This document shows, one piece after another, positions 9,820 through 38,163 of a DNA stretch of 64,000 nucleotides. The translations under genes and the position numbers were made by a program. Below the pieces are notes generated by a model, which was given only the letters and a program-made list of their open reading frames with translations, was not told where the DNA came from and ran no database searches. The DNA comes from a virus. Taxonomy: Duplodnaviria; Heunggongvirae; Uroviricota; Caudoviricetes. Where the stretch lies: IMG/VR virus record IMGVR_UViG_3300042311_000626, positions 1-64,000 of that record. The stretch is one strand, 5' to 3'. Position 1 is the first letter of the stretch, and every line of letters begins with the position of its first letter.

Positions 9820-9879
9820 AAAATTACAAGAAAGCTTGCGGTACACAACATCAATACAAACATACGTATATACAAGAAT

Positions 9880-10068
9880 ATGAAACGATTATTATACAAC
9901 ATAGCATTTTGGATTGGTTATACAATCGTAATTGAAGATACTCTAATGAGTTGGGAAAAGTGGGAGATAAAAAAATACACTCACATTGTGGTATACAAGT
10001 ATTATGGTAGATTTAAACATGACAATAGCATTAAGTTAAGACGTGTGTGGGCGCTTAAAATAAGATAA
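9880..10068 (+). CDS. hypothetical protein
   Basis: 62-aa ORF; CGTATATACAA motif 5 nt upstream. Confidence 0.3.
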   Translation: MKRLLYNIAFWIGYTIVIEDTLMSWEKWEIKKYTHIVVYKYYGRFKHDNSIKLRRVWALKIR

Positions 10069-11235: not shown

Positions 11236-11601
11236 ATGGCAACACCAAGTAGAATAGGAATCGAGAACGAAAACGGATCAATAACATCAATTTACTGTCA
11301 TTGGGATGGTTATACAGAAGGTGTAGGTGCAATGTTAAAAGAGCATTATTTGAGCACTCAAAAAGTAAGAATGCTACTTAATTTAGGTGATATTAGTATT
11401 TTAGGAGAACAGGTAGCAACTATGGATGAACATACTTTTGATAATCCAAAGCAAGGTGTAACAGTGGCTTATCATAGAGACAGAGGTGAGGAAAAGAATG
11501 AGGCGAGAACGGATGTTTCAATTGAACAATTTAAAAATCGTTTAAGTGATTGTTATGGTTATGTTTATACTAAAGGTGGAAATTGGTTAACAGTAAGATA
11601 A
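11236..11601 (+). CDS. hypothetical protein
   Basis: 121-aa ORF. Confidence 0.4.
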   Translation: MATPSRIGIENENGSITSIYCHWDGYTEGVGAMLKEHYLSTQKVRMLLNLGDISILGEQVATMDEHTFDNPKQGVTVAYHRDRGEEKNEARTDVSIEQFKNRLSDCYGYVYTKGGNWLTVR

Positions 11602-11606
11602 GTGAT

Positions 11607-11894
11607 ATGAAACAGACAGCAGTAGAATGGTTAGCGAATGAGCTATATGAAAAATTTGAAATGAAAGGTGATGGTGCTTTGTTTAATGACTTGTTAAATC
11701 AAGCCAATAAAATGTTTGAGCAACAGATTATTGATGCCTTTGATAATGGTGTAGAAGATGATGGAATTATTGATAATGCAGAACAATACTATAATGAAAC
11801 ATTTGGTAAATCAACTCCGTGGTATGATGAAGATAAGACAACAGAAAGAATGAATATAATAGGACAAAATGGAAATAATGGTGAACACTATTAA
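11607..11894 (+). CDS. hypothetical acidic protein
   Basis: ORF in track from a TTG at 11583; first ATG at 11607 (MKQTAVEW...). Confidence 0.35.
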   Translation: MKQTAVEWLANELYEKFEMKGDGALFNDLLNQANKMFEQQIIDAFDNGVEDDGIIDNAEQYYNETFGKSTPWYDEDKTTERMNIIGQNGNNGEHY

Positions 11895-11928
11895 ATCCAA
11901 AGCACCAAATACATAATCCAGCTAAAAT

Positions 11929-11986
11929 AAAACGTACGACGGAAGAAACGAAACGTACGACGGAATAGAATAATAACGTACGGGCG
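11929..11986 (+). repeat. direct repeats AAACGTACGACGG (x2) plus AACGTACGGGCG
   Basis: Exact 13-mer at 11929 and 11951; related copy 11975; further copies at 12732 (direct) and 13243 (inverted). Confidence 0.7.
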
Positions 11987-12347
11987 AAAGGGCGATTACT
12001 AAATAATAGGAGCTGGGTGCTTCGGGTATGAAATATCGCATTTAAACGCATTGTTTTTTTACCACGGCATTATGTGATTATGGGGAGGTAATGCAAAATT
12101 ACGCGTTTTTTTGCGCAAATAATCGCGATTTTTTTGTTGCTTAAAGGAATAGGTGAGGATGGAAAACAAGGGTTAAGGGTGGAAAACATTACAATATTTT
12201 TTTTGTTGCTTAAAGTTTTTGTACTTAACATGTGGAACGAATGGAGATAATGTGTGATGGAGTTTTGTGACAAGGGAAAAGGTCCCGCCATGCCACGCCC
12301 CGTTTCTCCACTTTCGAAACGTATATACAAAACATAACATAACTACT

Positions 12348-12545
12348 ATGCTATATTACATAAACATTTACGTATTCATTGGCGCCATTGTGTCCGTATT
12401 GGCCATATTAATGAATAATTATTTTGTTAAGTACGACGACGGGACTCCTTTAACCAATAAAGACGTCGTTATAATAATTTTTTTCTGGCCAATATTTCTT
12501 TTGTTCTTGTTTTATTACTTTTTTGTTAAAGATTGGGATAACTAA
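12348..12545 (+). CDS. small membrane protein (65 aa)
   Basis: ATG inside track ORF 12267..12545 where AT-rich codon usage resumes; 2 TM helices. Confidence 0.3.
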   Translation: MLYYINIYVFIGAIVSVLAILMNNYFVKYDDGTPLTNKDVVIIIFFWPIFLLFLFYYFFVKDWDN

Positions 12546-12586
12546 GAATTTTTTTGTACATTCATATAAATAAAAAATTTAAAATT

Positions 12587-12733
12587 ATGATTGTACCTTT
12601 TTGGATTCAAGGCTTAGCATTTGGTGTTTATTATGTTCCGGACGACGACGGAGTAGATTACGACGACGAGACACATATGGTCCAATTGGCGTTAGGTTTT
12701 TTTGGTATATCGTTTATGTGGTGGAACGACTAA
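12587..12733 (+). CDS. small membrane protein (48 aa) with acidic loop
   Basis: MIVPFWIQGLAFGVYYVPDDDGVDYDDE...FFGISFMWW; below track cutoff. Confidence 0.25.
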   Translation: MIVPFWIQGLAFGVYYVPDDDGVDYDDETHMVQLALGFFGISFMWWND

Positions 12734-12852
12734 AACGTACGACGACGAAAGTTTTTTGTCTTTTTTTGCGATAATATTTGGTTGCGTGGTTTTTTGTTAT
12801 TAATTTTATGCCAGAGTTAAAAACATAAACATTAACATTAAAAATCAAGGTT

Positions 12853-13185
12853 ATGACGCGTACAGAAGTATTAGCAAAAGTAAAAGAGTTAGGTATCAAA
12901 ACAGAAAGACCAGCTCATCAGATGAAAACAGAAGCATTAGTTGCTTTAATTCACAAAACAGTTGTGATTGAAGATCACAAAGCACGTGGACGTAAAATCA
13001 ATCCAACGAGCGCTAGACAACAAAGATTAGCTACCCGAGCTATGTTGTTAGAAAATGGTCCAATTCAAAAAGGACGTAAACCGAACTTAACCAGTGCCAG
13101 ACAACAAAGATTGGCTGCATGGGAAGCTAGAAAGGCTGCCGGTGAGGTAATAAAACGAGGCCGTCCAGCAATGGTGGTTGCGTAA
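12853..13185 (+). CDS. HeH/Rho-N (SAP-like) domain DNA-binding protein with tandem basic repeats
   Basis: N-terminal LAKVKELGIKT...MKTEALVALI fits the Rho-N/HeH signature; two GRKxNxTSARQQRLA repeats; strong terminator follows. Confidence 0.5.
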   Translation: MTRTEVLAKVKELGIKTERPAHQMKTEALVALIHKTVVIEDHKARGRKINPTSARQQRLATRAMLLENGPIQKGRKPNLTSARQQRLAAWEARKAAGEVIKRGRPAMVVA

Positions 13186-13207
13186 TTTAATTGTTAAACT
13201 AGGAACT

Positions 13208-13237
13208 GACCCGACAGAAATGTCGGGTCTTTTTTTT
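13208..13237 (+). terminator. rho-independent terminator
   Basis: gacccgaca-gaaa-tgtcgggtc 9-bp stem plus T8. Confidence 0.75.
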
Positions 13238-13428
13238 CCTCCGTCGTACGTTTTATTATTTGGGGACAACTATTTCTAATATCCAAGTTGGTTGTTAATT
13301 TTTTTATTCGTACCTTTATGGGGGGGTCCGTTTTTTTTTTATAAAAACGTTACAACATTTTTTGTTTATCATTTGGATATTGGTTTTTTTGTTTGTATAT
13401 TTACGACGTTAATTAAAACAATAGAGTT

Positions 13429-13680
13429 ATGAGAGTACAAATTAAATCCATCTTCGAGCAAATTGCAGAGCAAGTATTTAAAATGACTGATGCAACTAAA
13501 GCTAAAACGTTCATTACTGAATTCGTTAATGAAAAGAATATTAACGACGACGACAAAAGAACGATCCTAAACAACATAGAGAACCTTAAATCGATTGCCC
13601 AGATCCAGAAATACATCTGTAACTCACTTCTTCAGTATGAGGGGCTAGGTGTTGGTGCTAGAAAGGATCCAAATGAGTGA
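13429..13680 (+). CDS. hypothetical protein; 3' end runs into a GC-rich segment
   Basis: 83-aa ORF; last ~15 codons lie in the GC-rich island 13635-13765. Confidence 0.35.
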   Translation: MRVQIKSIFEQIAEQVFKMTDATKAKTFITEFVNEKNINDDDKRTILNNIENLKSIAQIQKYICNSLLQYEGLGVGARKDPNE

Positions 13681-13948
13681 GCTGGATCATCTGGCCCAGT
13701 GGGAGCAGTTCCTCTGGCTTCAGGGGCTCGATCCGGGGCCTGAAATTGGGAACACCATTTCGTTAGTATGTATGTCGGAAGACATTAAACATTATAATTA
13801 TGAAGACTATCCAAGTAACACTTCAAGAGCGATGGGCTGCTTCTAGGCACCAGATCCACAAGACAAAGAAAACATATACCCGTAAGGATAAACACAAAAA
13901 CAAGAGTCGTAAAGACTCTTCATTTGTCTTTGGTTACCAGAATTATGT

Positions 13949-13975
13949 GTCGTAATTTTATAGCATAGTTAAAAA
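13949..13975 (+). promoter_or_regulatory. early promoter motif
   Basis: gtCGTAATTTTATAGCATAGTTAAAAA upstream of ATG 13993. Confidence 0.45.
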
Positions 13976-13992
13976 CATTAAAAATAAAAGTT

Positions 13993-14238
13993 ATGGCTTA
14001 TAGAGAAACATTTAGAATGAATCAAAGAGATTTTGATGAAGAAAATGAAGAAACAATTAATGACATTAGAAGTTATTTAGTTTACAATTACAATCATGTA
14101 AGTTCAGACCAACTATCAGATGGTTTTATTCTGGAGTTTATGTCCAGAGATTACTTAGTAAGGTTGCCGTTTGAGAGAAAGATGGATTGCCTTTATGATC
14201 ACATTTTGGCTCAAGGTTTATGTGATGTAGAAGAATAG
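13993..14238 (+). CDS. hypothetical protein
   Basis: 81-aa ORF between early motif and terminator. Confidence 0.4.
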   Translation: MAYRETFRMNQRDFDEENEETINDIRSYLVYNYNHVSSDQLSDGFILEFMSRDYLVRLPFERKMDCLYDHILAQGLCDVEE

Positions 14239-14241
14239 ATT

Positions 14242-14262
14242 AAGCGCTTAGGCGCTTTTTTT
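14242..14262 (+). terminator. rho-independent terminator
   Basis: aagcgc-ttag-gcgctt plus T7. Confidence 0.5.
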
Positions 14263-14290
14263 GTCTTTCACTAGGATACCTAAAAAATTT

Positions 14291-14318
14291 TTCGTACCTT
14301 TATACCAAATTTAAATTA
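14291..14318 (+). promoter_or_regulatory. early promoter motif, degenerate
   Basis: TTCGTACCTTTATACCAAATTTAAATTA upstream of the GC-rich ORF. Confidence 0.4.
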
Positions 14319-14326
14319 AAAACAAA

Positions 14327-14887
14327 ATGAAAACATTAGTAATACACCCTAACGATCGATCAACTGATTTTCTTAAGCCGATCTATAACGAGCTAGACGA
14401 TGTTACTCTGGTGACTGGCAACTGGACACGTGGGGAAATAATAGAGGGCATCCAGGCACACGATCAAGTAATGATGATGGGACATGGGAGCCCAGGTGGA
14501 TTGTTTGCTATGGGGCAGTTTTGGCCTCAAGACGTCCTTAGTGCCTATATTATAGGGGCTGACATGGTTGAGGCGTTGAGCCAGAAGGACAACAACATTT
14601 TTATCTGGTGTAATGCCGATCAATTTGTTACTAGACACATGCTGAAGGGGTTTTACACTGGGATGTTTATCTCTGAGACGGGCGAGGCTGCTTATTGTGG
14701 ATTGCCTGGTACACCTCAAGACATGGTGGATGAATCGAACCACGGGTTTGTTAAAATACTTGGCGATGCACTTCAGGGCACCAGAGACACTAGTGTTCTA
14801 TTTGAGCAGACTAGCAACACATACAGCCTAATAGCCGACATTAATCCAGTAGCTAAATACAATCATAATAGACTTTATTTAAGATAG
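14327..14887 (+). CDS. hypothetical protein, compositionally foreign
   Basis: 186-aa ORF with clearly higher GC than neighbours; GHGSPGG and hydrophobic-strand-Cys (IFIWCNAD) elements. Confidence 0.5.
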   Translation: MKTLVIHPNDRSTDFLKPIYNELDDVTLVTGNWTRGEIIEGIQAHDQVMMMGHGSPGGLFAMGQFWPQDVLSAYIIGADMVEALSQKDNNIFIWCNADQFVTRHMLKGFYTGMFISETGEAAYCGLPGTPQDMVDESNHGFVKILGDALQGTRDTSVLFEQTSNTYSLIADINPVAKYNHNRLYLR

Positions 14888-14908
14888 ATTTGGTTGCCTA
14901 AAATATTA

Positions 14909-14937
14909 TTCGTACTTTTATATCAAAGTTTAACAAT
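14909..14937 (+). promoter_or_regulatory. early promoter motif, degenerate
   Basis: TTCGTACTTTTATATCAAAGTTTAACAA. Confidence 0.4.
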
Positions 14938-14952
14938 TAAAATATTCTTATT

Positions 14953-15252
14953 ATGAGTGAAAAAATTAACAGCGACTGTTTATTCCGCCTTGAGGCGAAA
15001 GGTGAAGACATTAGTGCTTCAGTTGAAGGTAAAGCTAGAGATATAGCAGAATTACTTGCTAACGCAGCTATAAATTCAGAAGAAATAAACATGGTTTTAA
15101 AATTTGCTATGTTAATGTTGGCTCAACATGAAATGAACCAAGACGAAGACGAAGACGAAGACCGAATCAGCGAAGAAAGATTCCAAGCTGGTAAAGAAGC
15201 TGCTGTTGACTTAGCTCAGGCATTATTCCCTCTTAAAATGGAGGAAGCATAA
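14953..15252 (+). CDS. acidic hypothetical protein
   Basis: 99 aa with QDEDEDEDR run; flanked by motif and terminator. Confidence 0.45.
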   Translation: MSEKINSDCLFRLEAKGEDISASVEGKARDIAELLANAAINSEEINMVLKFAMLMLAQHEMNQDEDEDEDRISEERFQAGKEAAVDLAQALFPLKMEEA

Positions 15253-15287
15253 GATTTCTCATTATTTATTGTTTTTAATTAGTGAAT

Positions 15288-15315
15288 TGACTCATCAGAA
15301 ATGGTGAGTCTTTTC
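15288..15315 (+). terminator. rho-independent terminator
   Basis: tgactcatc-agaaat-ggtgagtc plus TTTT. Confidence 0.5.
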
Positions 15316-15326
15316 TATTTATCATC

Positions 15327-15545
15327 ATGAAAAAGTTTATATTATATTTGATCACATGGGTAGCAGGCAATCTGTCTATTCCATTCTGGATGGTAGGGCA
15401 CGTCCACCTGACAACTAATGTGTATGAGGACATACATGAGATAATTGCCTCATTCGGGATGAACATTATAGTGGCCCTTGGGTTCTGGCTAGAATGGAAA
15501 AACTACGATGCGGCTACTAAGCCAAATAACGATAAAGACAATTAA
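15327..15545 (+). CDS. small membrane protein
   Basis: 72 aa, 2 TM helices. Confidence 0.4.
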   Translation: MKKFILYLITWVAGNLSIPFWMVGHVHLTTNVYEDIHEIIASFGMNIIVALGFWLEWKNYDAATKPNNDKDN

Positions 15546-15571
15546 ATAATACTTGGTTATACGGTTTATAG

Positions 15572-15598
15572 TTTGTAATTTTATAGCATAATTTAAAA
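15572..15598 (+). promoter_or_regulatory. early promoter motif
   Basis: TTTGTAATTTTATAGCATAATTTAAAA, 11 nt before ATG 15610. Confidence 0.5.
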
Positions 15599-15609
15599 CA
15601 ACAAATAAA

Positions 15610-15777
15610 ATGAGCACATTAAAATTTACAGACGGAGAAACATTTGATTTATCAGGTGAATTAAGAGCCGAAGAGCGTTATGATGGATGGTACGTGTTAG
15701 GTGAAAACCGAATGATACCTGTTAACGACGAGTTTGATGCTTTAAACACAATAGATAAACTTAACGCCCTTAAATAA
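15610..15777 (+). CDS. hypothetical protein (55 aa)
   Basis: ORF 11 nt downstream of early motif 15572-15598; below cutoff. Confidence 0.35.
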   Translation: MSTLKFTDGETFDLSGELRAEERYDGWYVLGENRMIPVNDEFDALNTIDKLNALK

Positions 15778-15778
15778 G

Positions 15779-15964
15779 ATGAATAAGTTACTACTTAGAT
15801 ATAAAAATGAAAACAACAAGCAAGTAGACGTTGTAATGGATCCCAGAGAGCTATCCCATATGGAGTTTATTAAGGGGAACAGAACGTTATATAAGGTATA
15901 TGATGCTGAAGATGAGTTTAATGTTGAATTAGAACGTCTAACTAAATTAAGTAACAGTAATTAA
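15779..15964 (+). CDS. hypothetical protein
   Basis: 61-aa ORF. Confidence 0.35.
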   Translation: MNKLLLRYKNENNKQVDVVMDPRELSHMEFIKGNRTLYKVYDAEDEFNVELERLTKLSNSN

Positions 15965-15991
15965 AAGTAGACGTGTATACGCTACTTACCG

Positions 15992-16018
15992 TTCGTAATT
16001 TTATAGCATAGTTTAACA
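15992..16018 (+). promoter_or_regulatory. early promoter motif
   Basis: TTCGTAATTTTATAGCATAGTTTAACA. Confidence 0.5.
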
Positions 16019-16034
16019 ATTAAAAACATATAAA

Positions 16035-16220
16035 ATGAAAACATTAGACATCTTAATTAAAGTATTATTAGTTACCTTAATGTTATTAAGTGTAATACGA
16101 ATGTTCTTCTACCCTAGTACATTAGAACATTTTGCAATGTGTTGGTTCTTGCTTATGGCATCTGGTGTTGGTGCATTAGCTTACTACAAACAAAGCACCA
16201 AATGGAACCTAAACAAATAA
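16035..16220 (+). CDS. small membrane protein
   Basis: 61 aa, 2 TM helices. Confidence 0.35.
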   Translation: MKTLDILIKVLLVTLMLLSVIRMFFYPSTLEHFAMCWFLLMASGVGALAYYKQSTKWNLNK

Positions 16221-16363
16221 AAGCAATGAATACGATAACACAGACGATAGAGCAAGATGGATTCAGCTGGTTCGAATATAATACAGGATCGATCACATTA
16301 ATCGAATTTTCATTGAGTGAGCTAGTAAAGCGTATAGTAGCCATTAACCCGACGCTAAATTAA
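16202..16363 (+). CDS. hypothetical protein (53 aa)
   Basis: First ATG of the hydrophilic part of track ORF 16139..16363; 19-nt overlap in a different frame. Confidence 0.3.
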   Translation: MEPKQIKAMNTITQTIEQDGFSWFEYNTGSITLIEFSLSELVKRIVAINPTLN

Positions 16364-16439
16364 GCATGTACGGTAGATACTAAACAAACAACAACAACTA
16401 ACATGAGGCGGCCAAAAGGTCGCCTTCCTTAATCTAAAT

Positions 16440-16690
16440 GCATGTGTGCGCGCGCGTGACAAAAAAAGCGGGCAGGGCTCTGGCTTCAGGCGGGTCTGGC
16501 GTGTGTGACAAAAAAGAACACTCTCCTTCAATCTATCGATCCGCTAGCGCTGCGCGCGCGGAGCGACAGCGAAGTGGGCCCACGGTAATTGCGGTCCATC
16601 GACGATGCGACAAAAACGCGCCCGAAGGCCCCGGCTTTACAACAAGACAACAAAATTCACCCCGCGCCCCCCGTATATACAAATATATTG
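16440..16690 (+). other. GC-rich non-coding island (~60% GC in a ~31% GC genome)
   Basis: GTGACAAAAAA / GCGACAAAAAC repeats, (CG)n runs, ends in CGTATATACAA; track ORFs here look spurious. Confidence 0.6.
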
Positions 16691-16835
16691 CAAAATCCAT
16701 TATAACCCATTCGATATAAAATCCAAGACCCCGAAATCTCTCTCTTTAACGATCTTTTTCCCACTTCAAAGCGTATATACGAGAGGTTGGAAACAAGAAA
16801 AAACATTCGTATATTTAGACTTAAATTAAAAAGTT

Positions 16836-16979
16836 ATGATAATATACATGGATAAAACCATTGAGTTATTAGGTAAACTAGACCCCAAGGGAACCCAGGC
16901 CTTAATCGACTCAGGTGAAGTTAAATACTTAGAAGAAAAAACTGCTTATTTAGTAATTAAAGATAAAGAAGATGAGTAA
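16836..16979 (+). CDS. hypothetical protein (47 aa)
   Basis: aaaagttATG context; stop overlaps next start. Confidence 0.25.
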   Translation: MIIYMDKTIELLGKLDPKGTQALIDSGEVKYLEEKTAYLVIKDKEDE

Positions 16980-17976
16980 AATTGAAGAATTAAAACAGCA
17001 CAATCCTTATTACGGAAAATCAGCCATCGATATAATGCATTGGCTTTTTGATAAACCCAAATACGTCGAGCTAGCCGTTTCATTGTTTAAAAACGCAGAA
17101 AACGCGCGTACTTACCATAATGATGTTATTGAGATATTAGCAGATTGGGAAATACCTCAGGAAAAAATAGATGCTCTATCTATCTACGAATTACACTTTA
17201 TATACGTTTTCTTAGATTCAGTAGGTAGAGAAAATATTACTAATCTACTTAAATTTGCCGAATATAACGAGCGAAAATTAATTGTTCGAAATGATATTTC
17301 CACGTATAAGAATTTTGATGAATTGGAGAATCAAATAAATCTAGCAGAGATAAAAATAATGGGTAAAGAATTACAATCCCAAACCCAAATCCTACATGAT
17401 ACGGATGAATGGTTGGTTTTAAAACCATTATCATTCGAAGCATCTTTAAAATATGGTGCCTCTACTAAGTGGTGTACCGCCATGAAGAATGACCCCGAGT
17501 ATTTTATTCGTTATTCTAAACGTGGAATTGTGATTTATTGTATAAATCGCTCCACGGGTGAAAAAATAGCCGCATTTAAGAATCTTAATACTGATTATGA
17601 GTATGAAACATCATTCTGGGATGCTAAAGATATTCGTGTAGATTCTATGGATACTAATCTTCCTGAACGTATTTTAATTCTTATACGTAGTGAGTTTACT
17701 AATACTAAATTAACTAATTGGGAATTATTTTCAGATGAATATAAAGCTCAGTATCTTTCAAATACAACTATGACAACAAATACATGGCATGATGAACCAA
17801 ACGTAGCACCAAATCAGGGTGGTTTAGGATTAGCCATTCGTAACGCTATTACGTATGATGAAGACATTAATGTTGAAGAATTAGTAGAAAGGCAAATGGA
17901 AGAACGAGTAGTAGCTTGTAATACTGCTCCACCCCCATTTATGGGTGACATGGTTGAACAAGCTTGGAGAGACTAA
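16972..17976 (+). CDS. hypothetical protein (334 aa)
   Basis: Long ORF first after the GC-rich island; no recognisable motif. Confidence 0.5.
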   Translation: MSKIEELKQHNPYYGKSAIDIMHWLFDKPKYVELAVSLFKNAENARTYHNDVIEILADWEIPQEKIDALSIYELHFIYVFLDSVGRENITNLLKFAEYNERKLIVRNDISTYKNFDELENQINLAEIKIMGKELQSQTQILHDTDEWLVLKPLSFEASLKYGASTKWCTAMKNDPEYFIRYSKRGIVIYCINRSTGEKIAAFKNLNTDYEYETSFWDAKDIRVDSMDTNLPERILILIRSEFTNTKLTNWELFSDEYKAQYLSNTTMTTNTWHDEPNVAPNQGGLGLAIRNAITYDEDINVEELVERQMEERVVACNTAPPPFMGDMVEQAWRD

Positions 17977-17980
17977 TAGT

Positions 17981-18454
17981 ATGGGAGAATTTAAACACAT
18001 AACATTAGACGAAGCTAAATCGGATTATTATCCTAAACCCGAAGGAGTAAATTGTTTTTACTCTGATGCTTATACTTTAACACCTGATCCTAATGATCCA
18101 ACTAATGATTATGTACATTATTGGGTAAAGAATAATAAATTTAATGCTTCCTTATCATTTAACGAAGGATACATTTATATTTTGGAGAATAAAGGTCAAC
18201 CTGGTGTGTTGAAAATTGGATATACGGATAGGACGCCACAGGAGAGAGTCCGAGAGATTAACGGGGCAACAGGTGTTATAACACCTTGGTACATAGTTAA
18301 CGCATTCGCATGTAGAGCGCCTTTACAAATTGAATCTTTGATACATAAGAAACTTAAACCATTTCATGTTAATAAAGAAGGATTTGCTGTAACTATACCC
18401 TATGCTGAGGAAACAATTGCTGGTGTTATTTCCGATAATAATGCAAGTATTTAG
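17981..18454 (+). CDS. T5orf172/MUG113-type GIY-YIG-superfamily domain protein
   Basis: GYIYILENKGQPGVLKIGYTDRTPQERVREIN matches the T5orf172 core (YxYxL...KIGxT...R); ATG at 17981 preferred over track start 17945. Confidence 0.5.
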   Translation: MGEFKHITLDEAKSDYYPKPEGVNCFYSDAYTLTPDPNDPTNDYVHYWVKNNKFNASLSFNEGYIYILENKGQPGVLKIGYTDRTPQERVREINGATGVITPWYIVNAFACRAPLQIESLIHKKLKPFHVNKEGFAVTIPYAEETIAGVISDNNASI

Positions 18455-18494
18455 TAATACTAATATATTTATACCTAAATTAATACAACCACAC

Positions 18495-19731: not shown

Positions 19732-20013
19732 ATGACAACATTTGTAATTATTTTAATTAGTATCGTCCTTATTTTAGGATATATTTCTTACAATTTATTT
19801 AAAAAAGTTGAACAATTAGAAAGGATAGTAGATTCTCAAGAACAATACATATCTAAATTTTCTAATACAGTAGATTTTACTAATAAACGATTAGGAGAAA
19901 TTGATGAAAAAGGAACATTTCAATCCGATGACGAAATAGGATGGTTTTTTGAGAGTGTAAAGACATTACAGAGTGAATTAGATGATTTTAATTTGAATGG
20001 AGTTAGAAGATAA
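19732..20013 (+). CDS. membrane-anchored hypothetical protein
   Basis: N-terminal TM helix, 93 aa. Confidence 0.4.
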   Translation: MTTFVIILISIVLILGYISYNLFKKVEQLERIVDSQEQYISKFSNTVDFTNKRLGEIDEKGTFQSDDEIGWFFESVKTLQSELDDFNLNGVRR

Positions 20014-20752
20014 TGTAATAACGGTCGAGCTTACCAAGTCTGGTAAGCCCCGTAAACGTAAACCCAAAACATCTCACACATACTTTACTGAAGACACTCA
20101 GAATGCTATTGTAGAATATGTAGCATCTCAGGATCAAAAATTTAGAGATAAAGTTTATCGTGAACGTATTGAGTATGGATTTTTTAAATTGACTCAAAAC
20201 ATCATTCACACTTTTAAATTTTACTATACTGATGGTGAATCTGTTGAAGATGTACAACAAGAAGTAATTGCTTTTTTACTTGAAAAACTTAAATTATACA
20301 AACCTGCTAAAGGTAAGGCATATTCCTATTTTGGAACTATAGCTAAACGTTATTTAATTTTAAAGAATAAGAAAAACTATCAAAAACTTCAAGATAAAGG
20401 AGATTTATTAGAGATTGAAGAAGATAAAACTATACGAGAAGAAATAATAAATGACCATTATGGACAAGACTATAGTGTAAGTGAATTTATGTCTTTATAT
20501 ACTCGTTATGTAGATAAAAATCTTCATAAATTGTTTCCTAAAGAAATAGATGCTAAAACAGCAGATGCCGTAGTTGAATTATTCCGTAAATGTGAATCAT
20601 TGGATATATTTAACAAAAAAGCATTATACATCTATATTCGTGAAATGATAGACGTAGATACTCCTCAAATTACTAAAATTATTAAAAAATTAAAAGTTAT
20701 ATACATTGATTTATATAATAGATATTATGAAGATAATTACATCAATGTGTAA
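19997..20752 (+). CDS. putative late-transcription sigma factor (T4 gp55-like, sigma-70 region-2-like only)
   Basis: ESVEDVQQEVIAFLLEKLKLYKPAKGKAYSYFGTIAKRYLILKNKKN parallels T4 gp55 and sigma region 2; sits just upstream of the late module. Confidence 0.5.
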   Translation: MELEDNVITVELTKSGKPRKRKPKTSHTYFTEDTQNAIVEYVASQDQKFRDKVYRERIEYGFFKLTQNIIHTFKFYYTDGESVEDVQQEVIAFLLEKLKLYKPAKGKAYSYFGTIAKRYLILKNKKNYQKLQDKGDLLEIEEDKTIREEIINDHYGQDYSVSEFMSLYTRYVDKNLHKLFPKEIDAKTADAVVELFRKCESLDIFNKKALYIYIREMIDVDTPQITKIIKKLKVIYIDLYNRYYEDNYINV

Positions 20753-34409: not shown

Positions 34410-37025
34410 ATGGGTTCATTCAAAAAGTTAAAATCTTCGGATGTTATAACAGTACCTGTTGTAGCAAATAAAAGTTGGAACTTTAATTATTGTCCGGTTC
34501 CAACTAATGACCCTTATGTTTCGTATTATAATGGTATAAATTCAACAGATCTATTTAATCCTAATGAGGATTGGATAACTAATGGACATTATGATAGGTT
34601 AACGTATAGACAGATTAACCAATTATTTTACCATGACTTTTCAGGTAGTTTAAATACATCTTCATTAGCATCATCATTATATTATGAATCAGCTAGCAGT
34701 AGTCACCCTACTGCTTCATATTTTAACTATAACAATGACCCTGCTTTTATTTCTAATTTCCCAACAGGAGCAAATGAGGAAATAAAGGTAATACAAATAT
34801 CACCTAAAGCTTACGGAAGTAGATTATTACCTTATACTTTCCAAATGTCATCATCTCAGTATAATTTTTATGATGATGGTAAGGGTAATGTTTATGATAA
34901 CTTTAATAGTAATCCACCAGCTCACGTAGGTAATATTTTTTATGAACAAGGTACAGTAGTAATTACTAGTCAAGATTTTCAAACATTATTTGTATTACCT
35001 CCAGTAGCGTACGATGATAATTACACAATTATACGAAGTGACTACCCTAACCCAGCAACATTCTCATTTAATCCTTTAATAAATGATGATTTAAGGGGTA
35101 ATACATTAGTAAATCAATCTATTACTTTATTTGGAGGGGATATATCATTCTTTAGTACAGGTTCTAGTAACACTGTATCTATGTCTTTCTCTGGTTTAGG
35201 AGTAGGGACATATCAAACTTTTTATACATTTTTAGTTACTGGTTCTTATTGTGCTCCTTTACGTAGTGGTACAGGAAGTATAACAGTAAATGTAACAGAT
35301 CCAGAATGTGAATTTGAAATAGGTATTATAGAAATTTCACCACCAGCACCATCTGTAACACCAACACCAACTATATCTGTTACTCCAACTGTTACACCAA
35401 CAACAACACCAACTATATCTGTTAGTAGAACTCCATCGGCTACACCGTCAGTAAGTCCTACACCAAGTATAAGTGTTAGTAGAACACCATCAGTAACACC
35501 AAGTAGAACACCTAGTATAACACCATCAATAACGCCTTCGATTTCAATTAGTGCAACACCTAGTGTAACACCATCAATTTCAATAAGTGCTACACCAAGT
35601 GTAACTCCAAGTGTAACGCCTTCAATTTCGATAACGCCATCGATTTCGATTAGTGCTACTCCTAGTACAACACCATCGATTACACCTTCGATTTCGATAA
35701 GTGCTACTCCAAGTGTAACACCATCAATTTCGATAAGCGCTACACCAAGTATAACGCCGAGTATAACACCGTCTATTAGTATAACACCTTCAATTTCGAT
35801 AAGTGCAACACCATCTGTTACACCATCTGCTACTCCTAGTATTACGCCTAGTATTAGTATAAGTGCAACACCATCTGTTACACCATCAATTTCTATAAGT
35901 GTTACTCCTAGTATAACGCCATCGATTTCAATTACACCTAGTATATCGATTAGCGCAACACCATCTGTTACTCCTAGTATTTCTATTTCTAATACTCCAA
36001 GTGTAACGCCTAATATATCAAGTACACCATCGATTAGTATTACACCATCTATTAGTATTACACCATCGATTAGTATAAGCAAAACACCTAGTGTTACACC
36101 AAGTGTAACGCCTTCAATTTCGATAACACCATCGATTTCGATTAGTGCTACACCATCTGTTACTCCTAGCATAACACCAAGTATATCGATTAGTGTTACA
36201 CCAAGTATAACACCATCAATATCGGTTAGTAAAACACCTAGTGTAACACCAAGTAGAACACCTTCTACTTCATCACCATCAGTTATTCGCCAAGCAATAA
36301 GTTGTTGTGATTCTAGAAAAGAAGGAATGGTAATACCAGCGGCATTTATAGGAACAGTAGTAACATCAACAACAGATGAATGTTTCTTTATAAACAGTAA
36401 TATTGAACCAGTTGCAACTATAACGTGGAGTGGTGATTTAGGGTTTGAAGATTGTAATGCATGTACAGCATTTAATCCATGCCCTGCTCCACCATCACCA
36501 TCTACTACTCCAAGTATTAGTGTAAGTAGAACACCTAGTGTTACTCCAAGTATAACACCATCGATTAGTATAACGCCATCTATTAGTGTAAGTAGAACAC
36601 CTAGTGCTACTCCAAGTGTAACACCATCAATATCGGTTAGTAAAACACCAAGTGTAACGCCTTCAATTAGTATTAGTAAAACACCAAGTGTAACGCCTTC
36701 AATTAGTATTAGTAAAACACCATCAATTACACCAAGTATAACACCATCAGTATCAGGTATATCATATACATTCTATGCTAATGATTGGACTCCTGGTACA
36801 CCTTGTGGTCCTGCTTATGGTATATGGTTAGGTAGTGACGGTTATTATTATGCTACTGATGATGGTGCCGTTACATTTACATTAATGTATTCTTTAGCAG
36901 AATTTTGGTACCAATATCAATATTATGACCCATTTTTTGGATTTGATGTATATGATGAGTATTCAGTAAATTTTACATCAACAATAATAAACTATGAGGG
37001 ACAATTACCGTTCACATGTTTTTAA
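34410..37025 (+). CDS. structural protein with two long Thr-Pro-Ser tandem-repeat linkers and Cys-rich modules
   Basis: N-domain paralogous to 33362 ORF; ~310 aa of TPSISISATPSV-type repeats, Cys-rich island, second repeat block, aromatic-rich C-terminal domain. Confidence 0.6.
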   Translation: MGSFKKLKSSDVITVPVVANKSWNFNYCPVPTNDPYVSYYNGINSTDLFNPNEDWITNGHYDRLTYRQINQLFYHDFSGSLNTSSLASSLYYESASSSHPTASYFNYNNDPAFISNFPTGANEEIKVIQISPKAYGSRLLPYTFQMSSSQYNFYDDGKGNVYDNFNSNPPAHVGNIFYEQGTVVITSQDFQTLFVLPPVAYDDNYTIIRSDYPNPATFSFNPLINDDLRGNTLVNQSITLFGGDISFFSTGSSNTVSMSFSGLGVGTYQTFYTFLVTGSYCAPLRSGTGSITVNVTDPECEFEIGIIEISPPAPSVTPTPTISVTPTVTPTTTPTISVSRTPSATPSVSPTPSISVSRTPSVTPSRTPSITPSITPSISISATPSVTPSISISATPSVTPSVTPSISITPSISISATPSTTPSITPSISISATPSVTPSISISATPSITPSITPSISITPSISISATPSVTPSATPSITPSISISATPSVTPSISISVTPSITPSISITPSISISATPSVTPSISISNTPSVTPNISSTPSISITPSISITPSISISKTPSVTPSVTPSISITPSISISATPSVTPSITPSISISVTPSITPSISVSKTPSVTPSRTPSTSSPSVIRQAISCCDSRKEGMVIPAAFIGTVVTSTTDECFFINSNIEPVATITWSGDLGFEDCNACTAFNPCPAPPSPSTTPSISVSRTPSVTPSITPSISITPSISVSRTPSATPSVTPSISVSKTPSVTPSISISKTPSVTPSISISKTPSITPSITPSVSGISYTFYANDWTPGTPCGPAYGIWLGSDGYYYATDDGAVTFTLMYSLAEFWYQYQYYDPFFGFDVYDEYSVNFTSTIINYEGQLPFTCF
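35341..36285 (+). repeat. coding tandem repeat array of Thr-Pro-Ser units (first block)
   Basis: Dozens of 18-36-nt units such as acaccatcgatttcgataagtgctacaccaagtgtaacgcct; in-frame within 34410..37025. Confidence 0.85.
36490..36762 (+). repeat. coding Thr-Pro-Ser tandem repeats (second block)
   Basis: [16 protein letters not shown]... units. Confidence 0.8.
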
Positions 37026-37048
37026 AAATATTTAATATAAAATAATTT

Positions 37049-37789
37049 ATGCCAGATTTTCAAATATACTATCAAGAAGGAAATTCACCTGGACCATTTG
37101 ATATTTACTTATCAGGAACTTCAGGATTGCAATTATATGCTTCAGGAGTAACTCAAGCTCAATTGGATGGAGGATATTTTATTACTCTTCCTAGTGGGTT
37201 TACTTCATCGTCTATTGTTGTAGTTAATATGTCATTTGGTTGTGCTACACAAGATATAGTACCGTTTCCAACGCCATCTATATCTATTACACCATCGATT
37301 AGTATAACACCTAGTATAACACCAACTGTTACTGTAACACCAACTAGAACTGTAACTCCTAGTCCAACTATTAGTGTAACACCTAGTGTAACACCACCAC
37401 CTAGTAATACACCAAGTGTTACCCCAAGTGTTACCCCAAGTGAAACACCTCTTATTTCATTAACACCAACTCCTTCTATATCAATTAGCAGAACACCATC
37501 AGTTACACCACCCGCATCTAGTTTGTTGTATATAGGTACTCCTTCTGGAGCTTATACTCAAGCTTATTTAGCTTGTAATGCATATCCAGCATTTGCATAC
37601 GCTGCCTATTATGTTAATTCAGTGGGAGGTATAGCACCTGGAAATTATGTATATGGAGATGCAGCTCTTACAATACCTGTTAATGGATTTGACAGATGGG
37701 TTGCATTATCATATCTAGGAATTGGACCCATAGTAGGTGTAATCCAAATAGGCACTTCAGGACTTATTTTAAATTCTACTATTTGTTAA
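37049..37789 (+). CDS. structural protein with Thr-Pro-Ser repeat linker
   Basis: Same TPSISI(T/S) repeat family between two globular segments. Confidence 0.5.
37270..37515 (+). repeat. coding Thr-Pro-Ser/Val tandem repeats
   Basis: [24 protein letters not shown]... in 37049..37789. Confidence 0.75.
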
Positions 37790-37812
37790 TATAATTATAA
37801 TAAAATAATAAT

Positions 37813-38163
37813 ATGGGATATTCTCCACCGCCACCAAGTTTTAACATTTCGTTTCAAAACGAAGTGATAATCTATGAGCAAAACGTAATATGTCATGTTA
37901 AGGATAATGAATTTAATGCTTCATATAACCCAACATTATTACAAAATAATTTATTTACAGGAAGTACTTTTATATCACAATCATTAAATACACCTTTACC
38001 TGAATTAAAATATTTTGCAACATCTTCATATTTTGAACCTTATGTTACAACTATAGGATTATATAATGAACAAAACGACTTATTAGCTGTTGCTAAATTA
38101 TCTCAAGCATTACCTATATCACAAAATACAGATATGACTTTTGTCATAAAATACGATAAATAA
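37813..38163 (+). CDS. small protein carrying the conserved fibre C-terminal module
   Basis: YVTTIGLYNEQNDLLAVAKLSQAL matches the C-terminus of 33362 ORF. Confidence 0.5.
   Translation: MGYSPPPPSFNISFQNEVIIYEQNVICHVKDNEFNASYNPTLLQNNLFTGSTFISQSLNTPLPELKYFATSSYFEPYVTTIGLYNEQNDLLAVAKLSQALPISQNTDMTFVIKYDK

Follow-up and report, generated by a model that had tools for sequence, protein, structure and literature searches.

Candidate protein-binding control regions in the early region of an uncultured T4-like phage

Within a 64-kb stretch of phage DNA (hereafter the window, with 31.2% GC overall), we identify two conserved non-coding regions, islands 1 and 3, that on the evidence of their sequence and conservation may be cis-acting DNA control regions that bind protein where the early region meets a conserved gene module. 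We put the probability of this reading at roughly 0.45, with control of transcription as the most likely role. The main rival to transcription control, an iteron-type replication origin, is less likely. Comparison of related loci shows these non-coding regions to be common to a large family of uncultured T4-like phages, the host of which is probably a member of the Bacteroidota. The 11-bp-spaced repeat array of island 3 is previously undescribed.

Composition and coding content of the three islands

The original prediction had grouped three islands of 50-60% GC as one family of segments lacking a convincing ORF. GC-rich status is limited to island 2 (13630-13770, 53.2%) and island 3 (16440-16690, 57.0%), the latter being the GC maximum of the window, with the top eight 250-nt windows by GC all starting within 16326-16526; island 1 (11895-12340) has only 38.3% GC and reaches at most 48% over any 100-nt stretch. 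The absence of a convincing ORF holds for islands 1 and 3, where no conserved frame was found and candidates lose their start codon or acquire stops in relatives, but not for island 2, which carries a conserved ORF of 57 codons. Island 2 forms the 5' portion, rich in GC, of a small protein-coding gene that is translationally coupled to the upstream gene through the ATGAGTGA overlap. The frame is open and gap-free in the window and in L020, L039 and L036, and is annotated as a 57-aa gene in L039. Its variable columns divide 12/6/16 among the three codon positions, and 1/1/9 where ORF51 overlaps it. The proposed insertion of island 2 into ORF 13429..13680 finds no support in the 532 nt around it, which align with four relatives with zero gaps. 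With island 2 coding and islands 1 and 3 being distinct conserved intergenic regions, the single-family reading falls, while the GC richness of islands 2 and 3 and the reality of the motifs stand. The three islands are three different things, and islands 1 and 3 have putative regulatory boxes in common without overall homology.

A structured non-coding RNA family, also proposed originally, finds no support in the islands. An Rfam search returned no match, minimum free energy z-scores of -0.65, +1.62 and -0.65 (island 1, -0.65) give no excess folding energy, and the consensus fold of the island-3 core over 50 diverse copies reaches -2.2 kcal/mol with zero compensatory pairs. No pairs were predicted in the stretch between boxes P1 and P2 in 38 sequences, and no consensus RNA structure was found for island 1. 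Both candidate control regions are made of linear sequence boxes, not RNA structure. It is very improbable that islands 1 and/or 3 are instead linear-sequence non-coding RNAs, such as a protein sponge carrying repeated GAUAGCG sites or a long unstructured leader. They do lie on the strand of all genes, their short motifs recur, the plus-strand fold is stabler than the minus in 54 of 72 copies (due to G-U pairs), and an unstructured leader would result from the G-poor sequence between P1 and the gene. However, besides the Rfam, covariation and z-score results, a terminator hairpin lies upstream of the array with no promoter visible between the two, and the exact 11-nt spacing of the array equals the DNA helical repeat.

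Layout and conservation of island 3

Island 3 consists, in fixed order, of a terminator hairpin, GC-rich/A7 boxes, an array ending in an 18-mer, and two palindromic GTATATAC boxes, after which the next gene follows (Table 1). The hairpin and the (CG)n runs (16444-16457, 16549-16563) noted originally are present and conserved, and other clades have GC-rich hairpins at the hairpin position, some with a T-run after. The first two A-boxes (16456-16466 and 16505-16514) enclose a hypervariable spacer (16467-16498), and relatives carry two to three A-boxes with unrelated spacers. The window has three occurrences of the box motif GYGACAAAAA where 0.51 would be expected (at least three in 0/100 shuffles), and each of them falls within island 3. 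The 13-mer CTCTGGCTTCAGG, said to link islands 2 and 3, was indeed found at 13712 and, within the hypervariable spacer, at 16478, but it is missing from most relatives. No exact shared word of that length arose in 1000 shuffles of islands 2 and 3, but window-wide BLAST assigns the match E = 0.35-0.97. GTGACAAGGG is present at 12267 but does not belong among the A-boxes, because it has no A-run.

Table 1. Positions of the features discussed, in window coordinates
Feature	Position	Strand	Remarks
Fourth GTATATAC box	9866..9873	.	6 nt before ATG at 9880
Island 1	11895..12347	+	450-nt conserved non-coding region, from gene end 11894 to gene start 12348
Two direct copies of (T/C)(A/G)AAACGTACGACG	11928..11962	+	listed repeats D8, I1, I15
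GC/T7 boxes ACGCGTTTTTTTGCGCAAATAATCGCGATTTTTTTGTTGCTTAAAG	12095..12146	+	reverse complement of island-3 A-box type
C-rich block, then GTATATAC box (12321-12328)	12283..12328	+	19 nt before ATG 12348
65-codon membrane-protein gene served by island 1	12348..12545	+	in-frame ATG inside ORF 12267..12545
57-codon gene	13673..13846	+	5' part is island 2; ATG overlaps stop of ORF 13429..13680 via ATGAGTGA
Terminator-like hairpin closing upstream gene	16405..16427	+	9-bp stem; invariant or G-U/A-U in relatives
Two (CG)n/GTGACAAAAAA(A) A-boxes	16446..16516	+	flank hypervariable spacer
Array of six phased direct-repeat units	16538..16603	+	11-bp periodicity
18-mer AATTGCGGTCCATCGACG, core GCGGTCC	16586..16603	+	near-invariant; 3' end of array
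Third A-box GCGACAAAAA	16607..16616	+	3' of array
P1, palindromic GTATATAC box	16673..16688	.	imperfect inverted repeat GTATAT-ACAA-ATATAT; C-rich block before
G-poor conserved spacer, P1 to P2	16681..16772	+	GC skew -0.31 to -0.41; highly conserved in clade
P2, second GTATATAC box	16773..16780	.	exact box at +110 to +330 in 36/55 loci
Host-type promoter TTGGAA-N-TTCGTATATTTAG	16787..16815	+	serves gene 16836-16979; invariant in clade

The array units read CCGCTAGCG, CTGCGCGCGCG, GAGCGACAGCG, AAGTGGGCCCA, CGGTAATTGCG and GTCCATCGACG, and since they lie 11 bp apart, all fall on the same face of the DNA helix. Across 50 distinct copies, autocorrelation is 0.386 at lag 11 and 0.329 at lag 22 over a background of ~0.25, and in-phase GCG recurs at -38, -27, -16 and +6 in 90-100% of copies. 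The array profile has a single match in the window (16539-16611) and one copy per locus, and the pattern GMKAGCGNNNNGMKMGCG, for which the expected count is 0, has one occurrence in the 64 kb. In the family, the counterpart of the third A-box lies at +19 to +40 and is either GCGCGCACAAAAAAA or a hairpin with an A-run after it.

The 18-mer has exact matches in 49 IMG/VR contigs, and its full invariance in these first 49 loci is by construction, because exact match was how they were collected; ten matches in bacterial genomes do not extend past 18-24 nt. We also sampled 35 loci through a downstream protein, independently of the 18-mer, and found the array in 31, with the core GCGGTCC kept in 30 of the 31. 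The four most distant relatives sampled have no array. Neighbouring proteins are down to 27-61% identity across loci, and the persistence of the core amid such divergence suggests that the putative binding partner of the array evolves slowly, as would be expected of a host factor or of one of the core proteins of the phage. The region is syntenically fixed, behind the upstream gene and before a conserved gene run. Its constant orientation relative to the genes is no independent evidence, because the loci have common ancestry.

This conservation bears on two further explanations. In the first, the islands would be inert insertions of GC-rich DNA, or what is left of a mobile or intron-like element; the conspicuous GC content and the homing-endonuclease-like gene close by speak for it. 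This reading is already contradicted, and we give it almost no weight: the islands occupy the same place in all close and most distant relatives with conservation above the coding flanks, the array is single copy, intron models gave no match, and neither terminal repeats, empty sites nor excision footprints were seen. It is also improbable that the core owes its retention chiefly to being cut by the neighbouring T5orf172 (GIY-YIG-type) homing endonuclease, or to serving as a homology anchor in the exchange of early-gene cassettes. A T5orf172 gene does lie at 17945/17981-18454 (Pfam E = 1e-14). In 43 loci its median distance downstream from the 18-mer is 525 nt, while eight loci with sequence enough to tell lack it, including the close relative L019. 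Variable presence is typical of homing endonuclease genes. Mosaic variant patches also occur, such as CTTTAGAG, common to L034 and L036, and T5orf172 genes have been reported at phage genetic-exchange boundaries (PMC10448857). Nevertheless, the element is unchanged in loci without the gene, a nuclease target would leave unexplained the 66-nt phased array and ~400 nt of ordered boxes, and homing nucleases use sequences that are already conserved rather than being the source of conservation.

Island 1 and the recurrent GTATATAC boxes

The early region (9.8-18.5 kb) is made up of small genes that each have their own copy of a repeated promoter (repeats D1-D4) and a terminator hairpin; island 1 lies within this cassette-like region and island 3 at its end. 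Conservation of both islands in relatives exceeds that of the coding flanks. In island 1, positions ~11985-12215 are mostly ~100% identical to L001/L020, with a handful of substitutions and indels, against 88% in the flanks. Homologs are present in L039, L036, L073 and L064, with weaker ones in L104, L106, L048, L084 and L046. The (T/C)(A/G)AAACGTACGACG repeat has additional copies at 12731-12744 (+) and 13242-13255 (-), and AACGTACGACG (four matches against 0.20 expected) is limited, among the loci fetched, to the close clade of the window. In distant phages, no part of island 1 is better conserved than the block of GC/T7 boxes, which contains TTTTTTTGTTGCTTAAAG (12129-12146), an 18-nt sequence exactly duplicated at 12198-12215. 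The C-rich block with its GTATATAC box is kept in every island-1 homolog. Over 26 nt, this last block is 77% identical to 16755-16780 (repeat D12). What islands 1 and 3 have in common is the C-rich block with the GTATATAC box and the GC/A7 boxes, the latter inverted in island 1. The gene that follows island 1 is annotated as a 65-aa gene in L039.

Exact GTATATAC sites number four in the window, all at 9.8-16.8 kb, and the longer form CGTATATAC occurs at 9865, 12320, 16672 and 16772 against 0.33 expected. Related loci totalling 569 kb contain 132 GTATATAC sites where 21.6 are expected, at recurrent intergenic positions, in some cases just 6-8 nt before a start codon. P1 lies ~87 nt past the start of the 18-mer, 40 of 55 loci have an exact GTATATAC between +60 and +110, and several clades have the perfect form GTATAT-N4-ATATAC. 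P2 in other clades is 20-35 nt upstream of the next ATG, and homologs of the 9866 site in L020, L039, L046, L081 and L084 are 7-8 nt from theirs. Even distant phages that have no array carry TATATAC(GTA) palindromes between terminator and gene. The box departs from the Bacteroidetes -7 motif TAnnTTTG, and no TTG stands at the expected distance from P2. In the window, the promoter following P2 is of the same type as the repeated promoters D1-D4; in other clades, read by eye, no host-type promoter is evident between P2 and the next ATG.

Possible functions and comparison with known systems

In the mechanism we propose, the hairpin of island 3 would halt transcription arriving from upstream, and a DNA-binding protein would occupy the phased array cooperatively and govern the two GTATATAC boxes, operators or promoters from which transcription of the conserved downstream module would start. 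Island 1 and the 9866 site would use the same box without an array. Operators of one regulator often recur in a genome, and this counts against the array, unique in each genome, as an operator. No gene for a DNA-binding protein was identified beside the array, and the small flanking ORFs have no Pfam or PHROGs match.

Of the original suggestions, replication-origin or partition DNA agrees with the general type of island 3, an 11-bp-phased direct-repeat array that would bind protein. In an iteron-type origin, an initiator would bind the phased repeats, the A-tract boxes would bend the DNA, and the strand-asymmetric stretch at 16.68-16.83 kb with its promoter-like boxes would be unwound or primed. 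The even spacing of direct repeats in a single-copy array, the A7 boxes on either side, the adjoining promoter-like boxes, the G-poor downstream region (31-39% GC), the location at the border of a module, where cumulative GC skew changes slope, and conservation above that of the adjoining proteins are all consistent with this. Nonetheless, no initiator-like gene adjoins island 3, DnaA boxes are absent in and near the islands, GC skew does not change sign, an AT-rich unwinding element is not distinctive because the entire genome is AT-rich, and the array is missing from the four relatives furthest removed. A packaging (pac) site, or a centromere-like site for partition, is highly improbable. 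Phased, genome-unique repeats with A-tracts on either side, and the 11-bp iterons of R1 parC, would suit it, but the large terminase gene (54535-56127) is 38 kb off, no ParM/ParA/ParR-like gene adjoins, the array is single rather than one of two around a promoter, and partition would meet no obvious need in a lytic T4-like phage.

T4-type hyperplastic regions reportedly contain promoter-early stem-loop (PeSL) cassettes (attributed to Arbiol et al. 2010), and the small genes of 9.8-18.5 kb, each with promoter and hairpin, resemble them. In contrast, islands 1 and 3 are far longer (~450 nt) and single-copy, and unlike repeated early promoters they carry GTATATAC boxes and the phased array. T5orf172 (GIY-YIG subfamily) homing endonuclease genes mark exchange boundaries in ICP1-like and T5-like phages (PMC10448857), and the window resembles these in having a variably present T5orf172 gene downstream, at a border of variable and conserved modules. 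This likeness concerns the neighbouring gene, not the islands, and the protein here is short (~160 aa); Zn-finger DNA-binding repeats are described for ICP1.

In the parC/ParR centromere-operator of plasmid R1, 11-bp iterons in two sets of five flank the par promoter and act as operators (PMC2241845), a precedent for the reading we favour. Island 3 is similar in its tandem 11-bp direct repeats beside promoter-like elements, and by analogy this geometry would imply cooperative binding along one helix face. It differs in having one upstream array instead of two flanking ones, in 3' units that are non-identical and nearly invariant across deep divergence, and in its lytic phage context, where no ParM- or ParR-like genes were found. 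The closest parallels in layout include T4 oriE, where short direct repeats at even spacing likewise form a unique cluster in a T4-type phage, syntenically conserved among related phages, with promoter elements adjoining at a boundary of transcription modules; the role of the oriE iterons is itself undefined (PMC3016281), which weakens them as a precedent for an origin. The period is 11 nt here and 12 in T4, the sequences are unrelated, repEA/repEB-like genes were not recognised here, and the likeness is one of sequence layout.

The island 3 element

The main outcome of our analysis concerns island 3 (16440-16690), which by sequence comparison is an undescribed, strongly constrained combination of an 11-bp-phased array and palindromic boxes, common to a large uncultured clade of phages. 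The original prediction had grouped it with islands 1 (11895-12340) and 2 (13630-13770) as one family of structured RNAs, origin or partition DNA, or mobile or intron-like remnants. That finding is real in part: the islands are neither one family nor structured RNA nor a mobile remnant, as island 2 is coding, and islands 1 and 3 are separate non-coding regions that have regulatory boxes in common and no overall homology. The reported composition of 50-60% GC holds for island 2 (53.2%) and island 3 (57.0%, the GC maximum of the whole window); island 1, at 38.3% in a window of 31.2%, is therefore not an island of this kind.

Searched at the nucleotide level with the region, the island 3 core and a family consensus, deposited phage genomes gave no real match, and the element is absent from the cultured relatives among them. 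Relatives were found with the adjacent 334-aa protein (the colinear IMG/VR contig L001 = L020 = L018 = L033, the metagenome contigs L019 and L021 and, from the protein database, L035, L036, L039 and L040) and by a DNA pattern search (L034). Island 3 is 80-92% identical in these relatives at the nucleotide level, compared with 60-83% for the 334-aa protein, and islands 1 and 2 are present as well wherever there is sufficient upstream sequence. Distant relatives of the 334-aa protein (35-43% identity) have no island, and their GC-rich windows are coding.

The most conserved part of the element is an 18-mer, AATTGCGGTCCATCGACG, with exact copies in 49 IMG/VR contigs, whose lengths reach 179 kb. 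When loci are oriented on it, all genes lie on the same strand and the same gene families follow downstream in every locus, and the loci are therefore homologous positions in related phages. Since these first 49 loci were chosen by exact match to the 18-mer, we drew a second sample through the protein encoded at 19997-20752, 3.4 kb downstream, which has relatives in 288 IMG/VR stretches. The array is present in 31 of the 35 loci having at least 4.5 kb of upstream sequence and is absent from the four most distant; its orientation is invariably that of the genes, and it lies 1.7-5.1 kb 5' of the marker-protein gene. The 18-mer itself varies in this sample (for example GGCCGCGGTCCCTACGCG), and its core GCGGTCC is kept in 30 of the 31 loci. 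Because proteins encoded beside the element share only 27-61% identity when the window is compared with other clades, the constraint on this core is unusually strong, and together with the exact copies it indicates a site under very strong constraint. Bacterial and archaeal genomes hold ten matches to the 18-mer, in unrelated taxa and extending over 18-24 nt, against about 17 expected by chance (an estimate from collection size), and a host-derived or attP origin was therefore rejected.

The order of the parts is given in the table. Autocorrelation over 50 distinct array copies peaks at lag 11 (0.386) and lag 22 (0.329), other lags lying near 0.25, and GCG recurs in phase at -38, -27, -16 and +6 in 90-100% of them. 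An array profile finds exactly one copy per locus, that of the window at 16539-16611. Variants among the arrays include GATAGCG versus GCTAGCG/GCGCGCG in the units and ATCGACG versus CTACGCG in the cores. None of the open reading frames in island 3 survives comparison: ORF 16438..16719 has lost its ATG in L020, L021 and L035, that of ORF 16605..16829 is CTG or GGC in relatives, and in L020 a stop interrupts the minus-strand ORF 16533..16700. There are also 1-nt indels among relatives between the 18-mer and the first palindromic box, P1. On this comparative evidence island 3 is a family-wide non-coding element.

Several differences among clades lie just downstream. The 47-aa and 334-aa genes (16836-17976) separate the control region from the T5orf172 gene only in the clade of the window; elsewhere, the second box, P2, is in most clades directly followed by a gene of about 60 aa (MKKYIQDS..LTKEAF..LTLEE..), and in L036 an insertion of two additional genes (77 and 111 aa) comes after the island.

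Positions of control elements and neighbouring features in the window, with the parts of island 3 numbered in order
Feature	Position	Remark
Island 3, part 1: terminator hairpin of upstream gene		
Island 3, part 2: two or three GC-rich boxes ending (G)T(G)ACAAAAAA		around a hypervariable spacer
Island 3, part 3: run of 11-nt units	16538-16603	six units; ..CGATAGCG.. in most clades, CCGCTAGCG/CTGCGCGCGCG/GAGCGACAGCG in the window
Island 3, part 4: GCTCCCAYGCC, then 18-mer	16586-16603 (18-mer)	
Island 3, part 5: further GC box, then A-run		
Island 3, part 6: C-rich block and palindrome GTATATAC (P1)	16673-16688 (P1)	about 87 nt after 18-mer start
Island 3, part 7: G-poor conserved sequence		about 100 nt
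Island 3, part 8: second GTATATAC (P2)	16773-16780	
Island 3, part 9: next gene		
GTATATAC, exact copies	9866, 12321, 16673, 16773	all within 9.8-16.8 kb
Repeated promoter module TTGG..N..TTCGTAnnTTTATAGCATAGTTTAA	10320-10345, 12797-12830, 13949-13982, 14291-14324, 14909-14942, 15572-15605, 15992-16025, 16787-16815, 18464-18483	
T5orf172 (GIY-YIG-type) gene	17945-18454	probable start 17981; downstream of the element

Islands 1 and 2 and the question of RNA structure

Island 1, too, is a non-coding region that has been conserved. Over most of about 11985-12215 it hardly differs from L001/L020, with flanks 88% identical; its identity is 92% in L039 and 83% in L036, it is recognisable in L073/L064, and in L104, L106, L048, L084 and L046 a profile search places it upstream of the array, at a distance of 3.3-4.7 kb. 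Its conserved blocks are ACGCGTTTTTTTGCGCAAATAA(T)CGCGnTTTTTTTG, which is the reverse complement of the island 3 box type, a duplicated TTTTTTTGTTGCTTAAAG, a C-rich block and a GTATATAC box lying 19 nt 5' of the ATG of a 65-codon membrane-protein gene. The similar ends noted for islands 1 and 3 were correctly described and are also conserved among relatives. The two TTTTTTTGTTGCTTAAAG copies do not form a CRISPR-like mini-array: just 18 nt are common to them, and the second copy is not kept in L073/L064. Island 1 further contains TTGCTTAAA, in which we see what we take to be a resemblance to the T4 MotA box.

A separate motif, AAAACGTACGACG, occurs four times (11928-11962; 12731-12744 on the plus strand; 13242-13255 on the minus strand) against 0.2 expected, and, of the loci compared, only those in the close clade of the window have it. 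A 110-aa gene with its promoter and terminator is enclosed by the perfect 14-bp inverted pair 12731/13242, and a 28-nt pair at 11926/13230, 89% complementary, encloses 1.3 kb including island 1; these repeats may mark the boundary of a cassette or be the site of a regulator. The enclosed gene (12853-13185) encodes a basic protein with two copies of an internal repeat, GRK..SARQQRLA, and no Pfam or PHROG match. Its family, with 28 occurrences in 17 related loci, explains the GC-rich coding stretches of distant relatives (in L002, members at 13009-13270 and 14610-15005).

Island 2, in contrast to its earlier description as an insertion into ORF 13429..13680, has nothing inserted, and the alignment is gap-free over 532 nt. 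A 57-codon frame starts with an ATG at 13673, which overlaps the stop of that ORF (ATGAGTGA), and runs to 13846; the frame is intact in four lineages, with variable columns distributed 12/6/16 over the codon positions. In the stretch shared with the overlapping ORF 13800..13955 (ORF51), which has a stop codon in L036, variable columns fall 1/1/9 in the frame of the 57-codon gene, and gene callers annotate the same 57-aa product in L039. Island 2 is thus protein-coding, and its GC-richness is simply the composition of this gene. A further GC-rich coding island, absent from the original list, is a 186-codon ORF at 14327-14887 (44% GC, locally up to 50%), with about 80% nucleotide identity in L020, L021 and L039 and no family match.

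Every motif on which the grouping of the islands had been based was found where it had been placed. GYGACAAAAA, with three sites in the window, in island 3 only (0.5 expected), and CGTATATAC, with four (0.33 expected), are above chance. The 13-mer common to islands 2 and 3 is also present, and none of 1000 shuffles of both islands shares so long a word, but its window-wide E is 0.35-0.97. It encodes L-W-L-Q-G in island 2 and sits in island 3 in a spacer that is unrelated in most relatives; we treat it as a coincidence, at most a lineage-specific patch.

The proposal that the islands are structured RNAs found no support in Rfam matches, compensatory pairs or excess folding energy. Rfam at the gathering score gave no match in the window and five related loci; at E <= 10 over 11500-17200 there were only chance-level snoRNA and miRNA matches, none of them in the GC-rich core of island 3, and a tRNA scan found nothing. 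The consensus fold of the island 3 core (50 sequences) has -2.16 kcal/mol and ten pairs, none compensatory, that of the P1-P2 stretch (38 sequences) has no pairs, and that of island 1 (six sequences) has a covariation term of -0.1. Compared with shuffles, the minimum free energy of island 3 has z = -0.65 on the plus strand and +1.62 on the minus strand, and that of island 1 has z = -0.65. A hairpin immediately downstream of the 18-mer (CAUCGAC/GUCGAUG versus CCCUAC/GUAGGG), which by eye seemed compensated in some clades, was rejected, as its register differs and 72 copies fold no better than their shuffles do (mean z = -0.34). By these computational measures islands 1 and 3 do not appear to be RNA structures. 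A mobile element, MITE or intron remnant does not fit either: the element is at the same place in all eight close relatives and in 31 of 35 sampled loci, in single copy and with no intron match.

Early promoters and palindromic boxes

The window has 31% GC and essentially all of its genes on the plus strand. Its large terminase shares 58% identity with the Flavobacterium phage vB_FspM_immuto enzyme, and T4-like cyanophage terminases are more remote relatives. At 35000-38000, GC rises to 34-37% with a negative GC skew (-0.10 to -0.25), and a 308-aa minus-strand ORF (35246-36172) is nested in an 871-aa plus-strand ORF (34410-37025).

A nucleotide-metabolism block (thymidylate synthase to DNA ligase) and a conserved block leading to baseplate genes flank the 9.8-18.5 kb region, which is made up of small genes that each come with a terminator hairpin and a repeated promoter, TTGG..N..TTCGTAnnTTTATAG. 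The promoter module stands before nearly every small gene, usually with the hairpin 5' of it. The Bacteroidetes promoter consensus is TTG-N19-TAnnTTTG, with a -7 motif TAnnTTTG and TTG 19-21 nt upstream. The ordinary early promoters of the window (repeats D1-D4; 16787-16815) match it, and because of this fit the host of the phage is likely to belong to the Bacteroidota.

The GTATATAC boxes are of another kind. One-mismatch variants in the window are at chance level, and 569 kb of related loci hold 132 copies against 21.6 expected, 40 of them at P1, 36 at P2 and the remainder at a few recurrent intergenic positions, including one directly after the T5orf172 stop codon and another, homologous to 9866, that precedes a start codon by 6-8 nt. 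P1 frequently takes the form of a 16-bp inverted repeat, GTATAT-N4-ATATAC. By reading, GTATATAC lacks the TTT of the -7 motif and P2 has no TTG at the required distance; the interval from P2 to the next ATG shows no further promoter in the other clades that were read. Given these recurrent sites, the lack of a host-type -7 fit and the lack of another visible promoter, we interpret the boxes as probable promoter or operator elements of a phage-specific class. In array-less, more distant phages, ATATACGTATAT-type palindromes still lie between terminator and gene (L174, 190-340 and 740-800; L177, 550-700 and 1095-1140). Ahead of one such palindrome stands CGTCGATGGA, which matches the 3' half of the 18-mer in reverse complement.

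Possible functions of the array

The anatomy, conservation and syntenic position of the control regions, their single copy and their lack of coding capacity and of RNA structure are observations on which a mechanism can be proposed. The strict 11-nt spacing of the direct repeats equals the helical repeat of DNA and points to a protein arranged along one face of the duplex. It is tempting to hypothesize that such a protein polymerises on the phased array and, once bound, controls the two boxes that would start the conserved downstream module, while island 1 and the site at 9866 may use the same boxes alone. There is precedent in R1 parC, where 11-bp iterons can act as operators around a promoter (PMC2241845). 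A ParR/parC-type centromere-operator as such does not fit, with one array, upstream only, and no Par-like genes among the flanking ORFs by Pfam/PHROG.

Two other classes of site were considered for the array core. A sigma-54 promoter reads TGGCACG-N4-TTGCW, with GG at -24 and GC at -12; the core CCCACG-N4-TTGCG fits in spacing, but the -24 GG is CC in all copies. A DnaA-box reading of the core was also rejected.

The main rival to control by an array-bound protein is an iteron-type replication origin, which would account for tandem, 11-bp-phased direct repeats that are unique, a single copy being found in the window and in each locus. In T4, oriE has repeats of 12 nt at even spacing, which relatives conserve and whose role is still undefined, and oriF and oriG combine a promoter with an unwinding element (PMC3016281). 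However, no DnaA box TTATCCACA (at most one mismatch) occurs between 10.6 and 18.5 kb, and there is no distinct AT-rich unwinding element, the downstream region having 31-39% GC in a 31% GC genome. Pfam/PHROG searches of the flanking ORFs (45, 47, 334 and 169 aa) recognised only T5orf172 and no Rep-like protein, although small unfamiliar proteins could escape them. We regard as unlikely, if worth stating, the bolder proposal that the array and its near-invariant GCGGTCC core serve a large uncultured freshwater T4-like clade as replication origin, or as another essential loading site of a slowly evolving host or core phage protein, with GTATATAC as a new class of phage-specific promoter/operator. 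If true, this phage group would for the first time have an origin and a regulatory code defined by sequence.

Of the related loci, 43 carry the neighbouring T5orf172 gene, and eight with sufficient sequence for a judgement lack it; the close relative L019 has different DNA in its place. The gene resembles a free-standing homing endonuclease gene, placed where a variable module meets a conserved one, in line with homing nucleases described at exchange boundaries (PMC10448857), and is more likely a lodger beside the conserved sequence than the cause of its conservation.

Should control by an array-bound protein hold, these regions would be cis-acting signals common to a very widespread uncultured phage group, as at least about 70 contigs carry the array, with no cultured phage among them. 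The array and boxes offer concrete handles for experiments, the array could aid annotation as a marker of the border between early and conserved modules, and phage-host linking might benefit if a host factor reads the site. Our results also correct the record, in that a GC-rich island of an AT-rich phage genome need be neither a structured RNA nor an insertion. Here the islands lie in a region whose promoter-and-hairpin modules recall the promoter-early stem-loop cassettes of T4-type hyperplastic regions.
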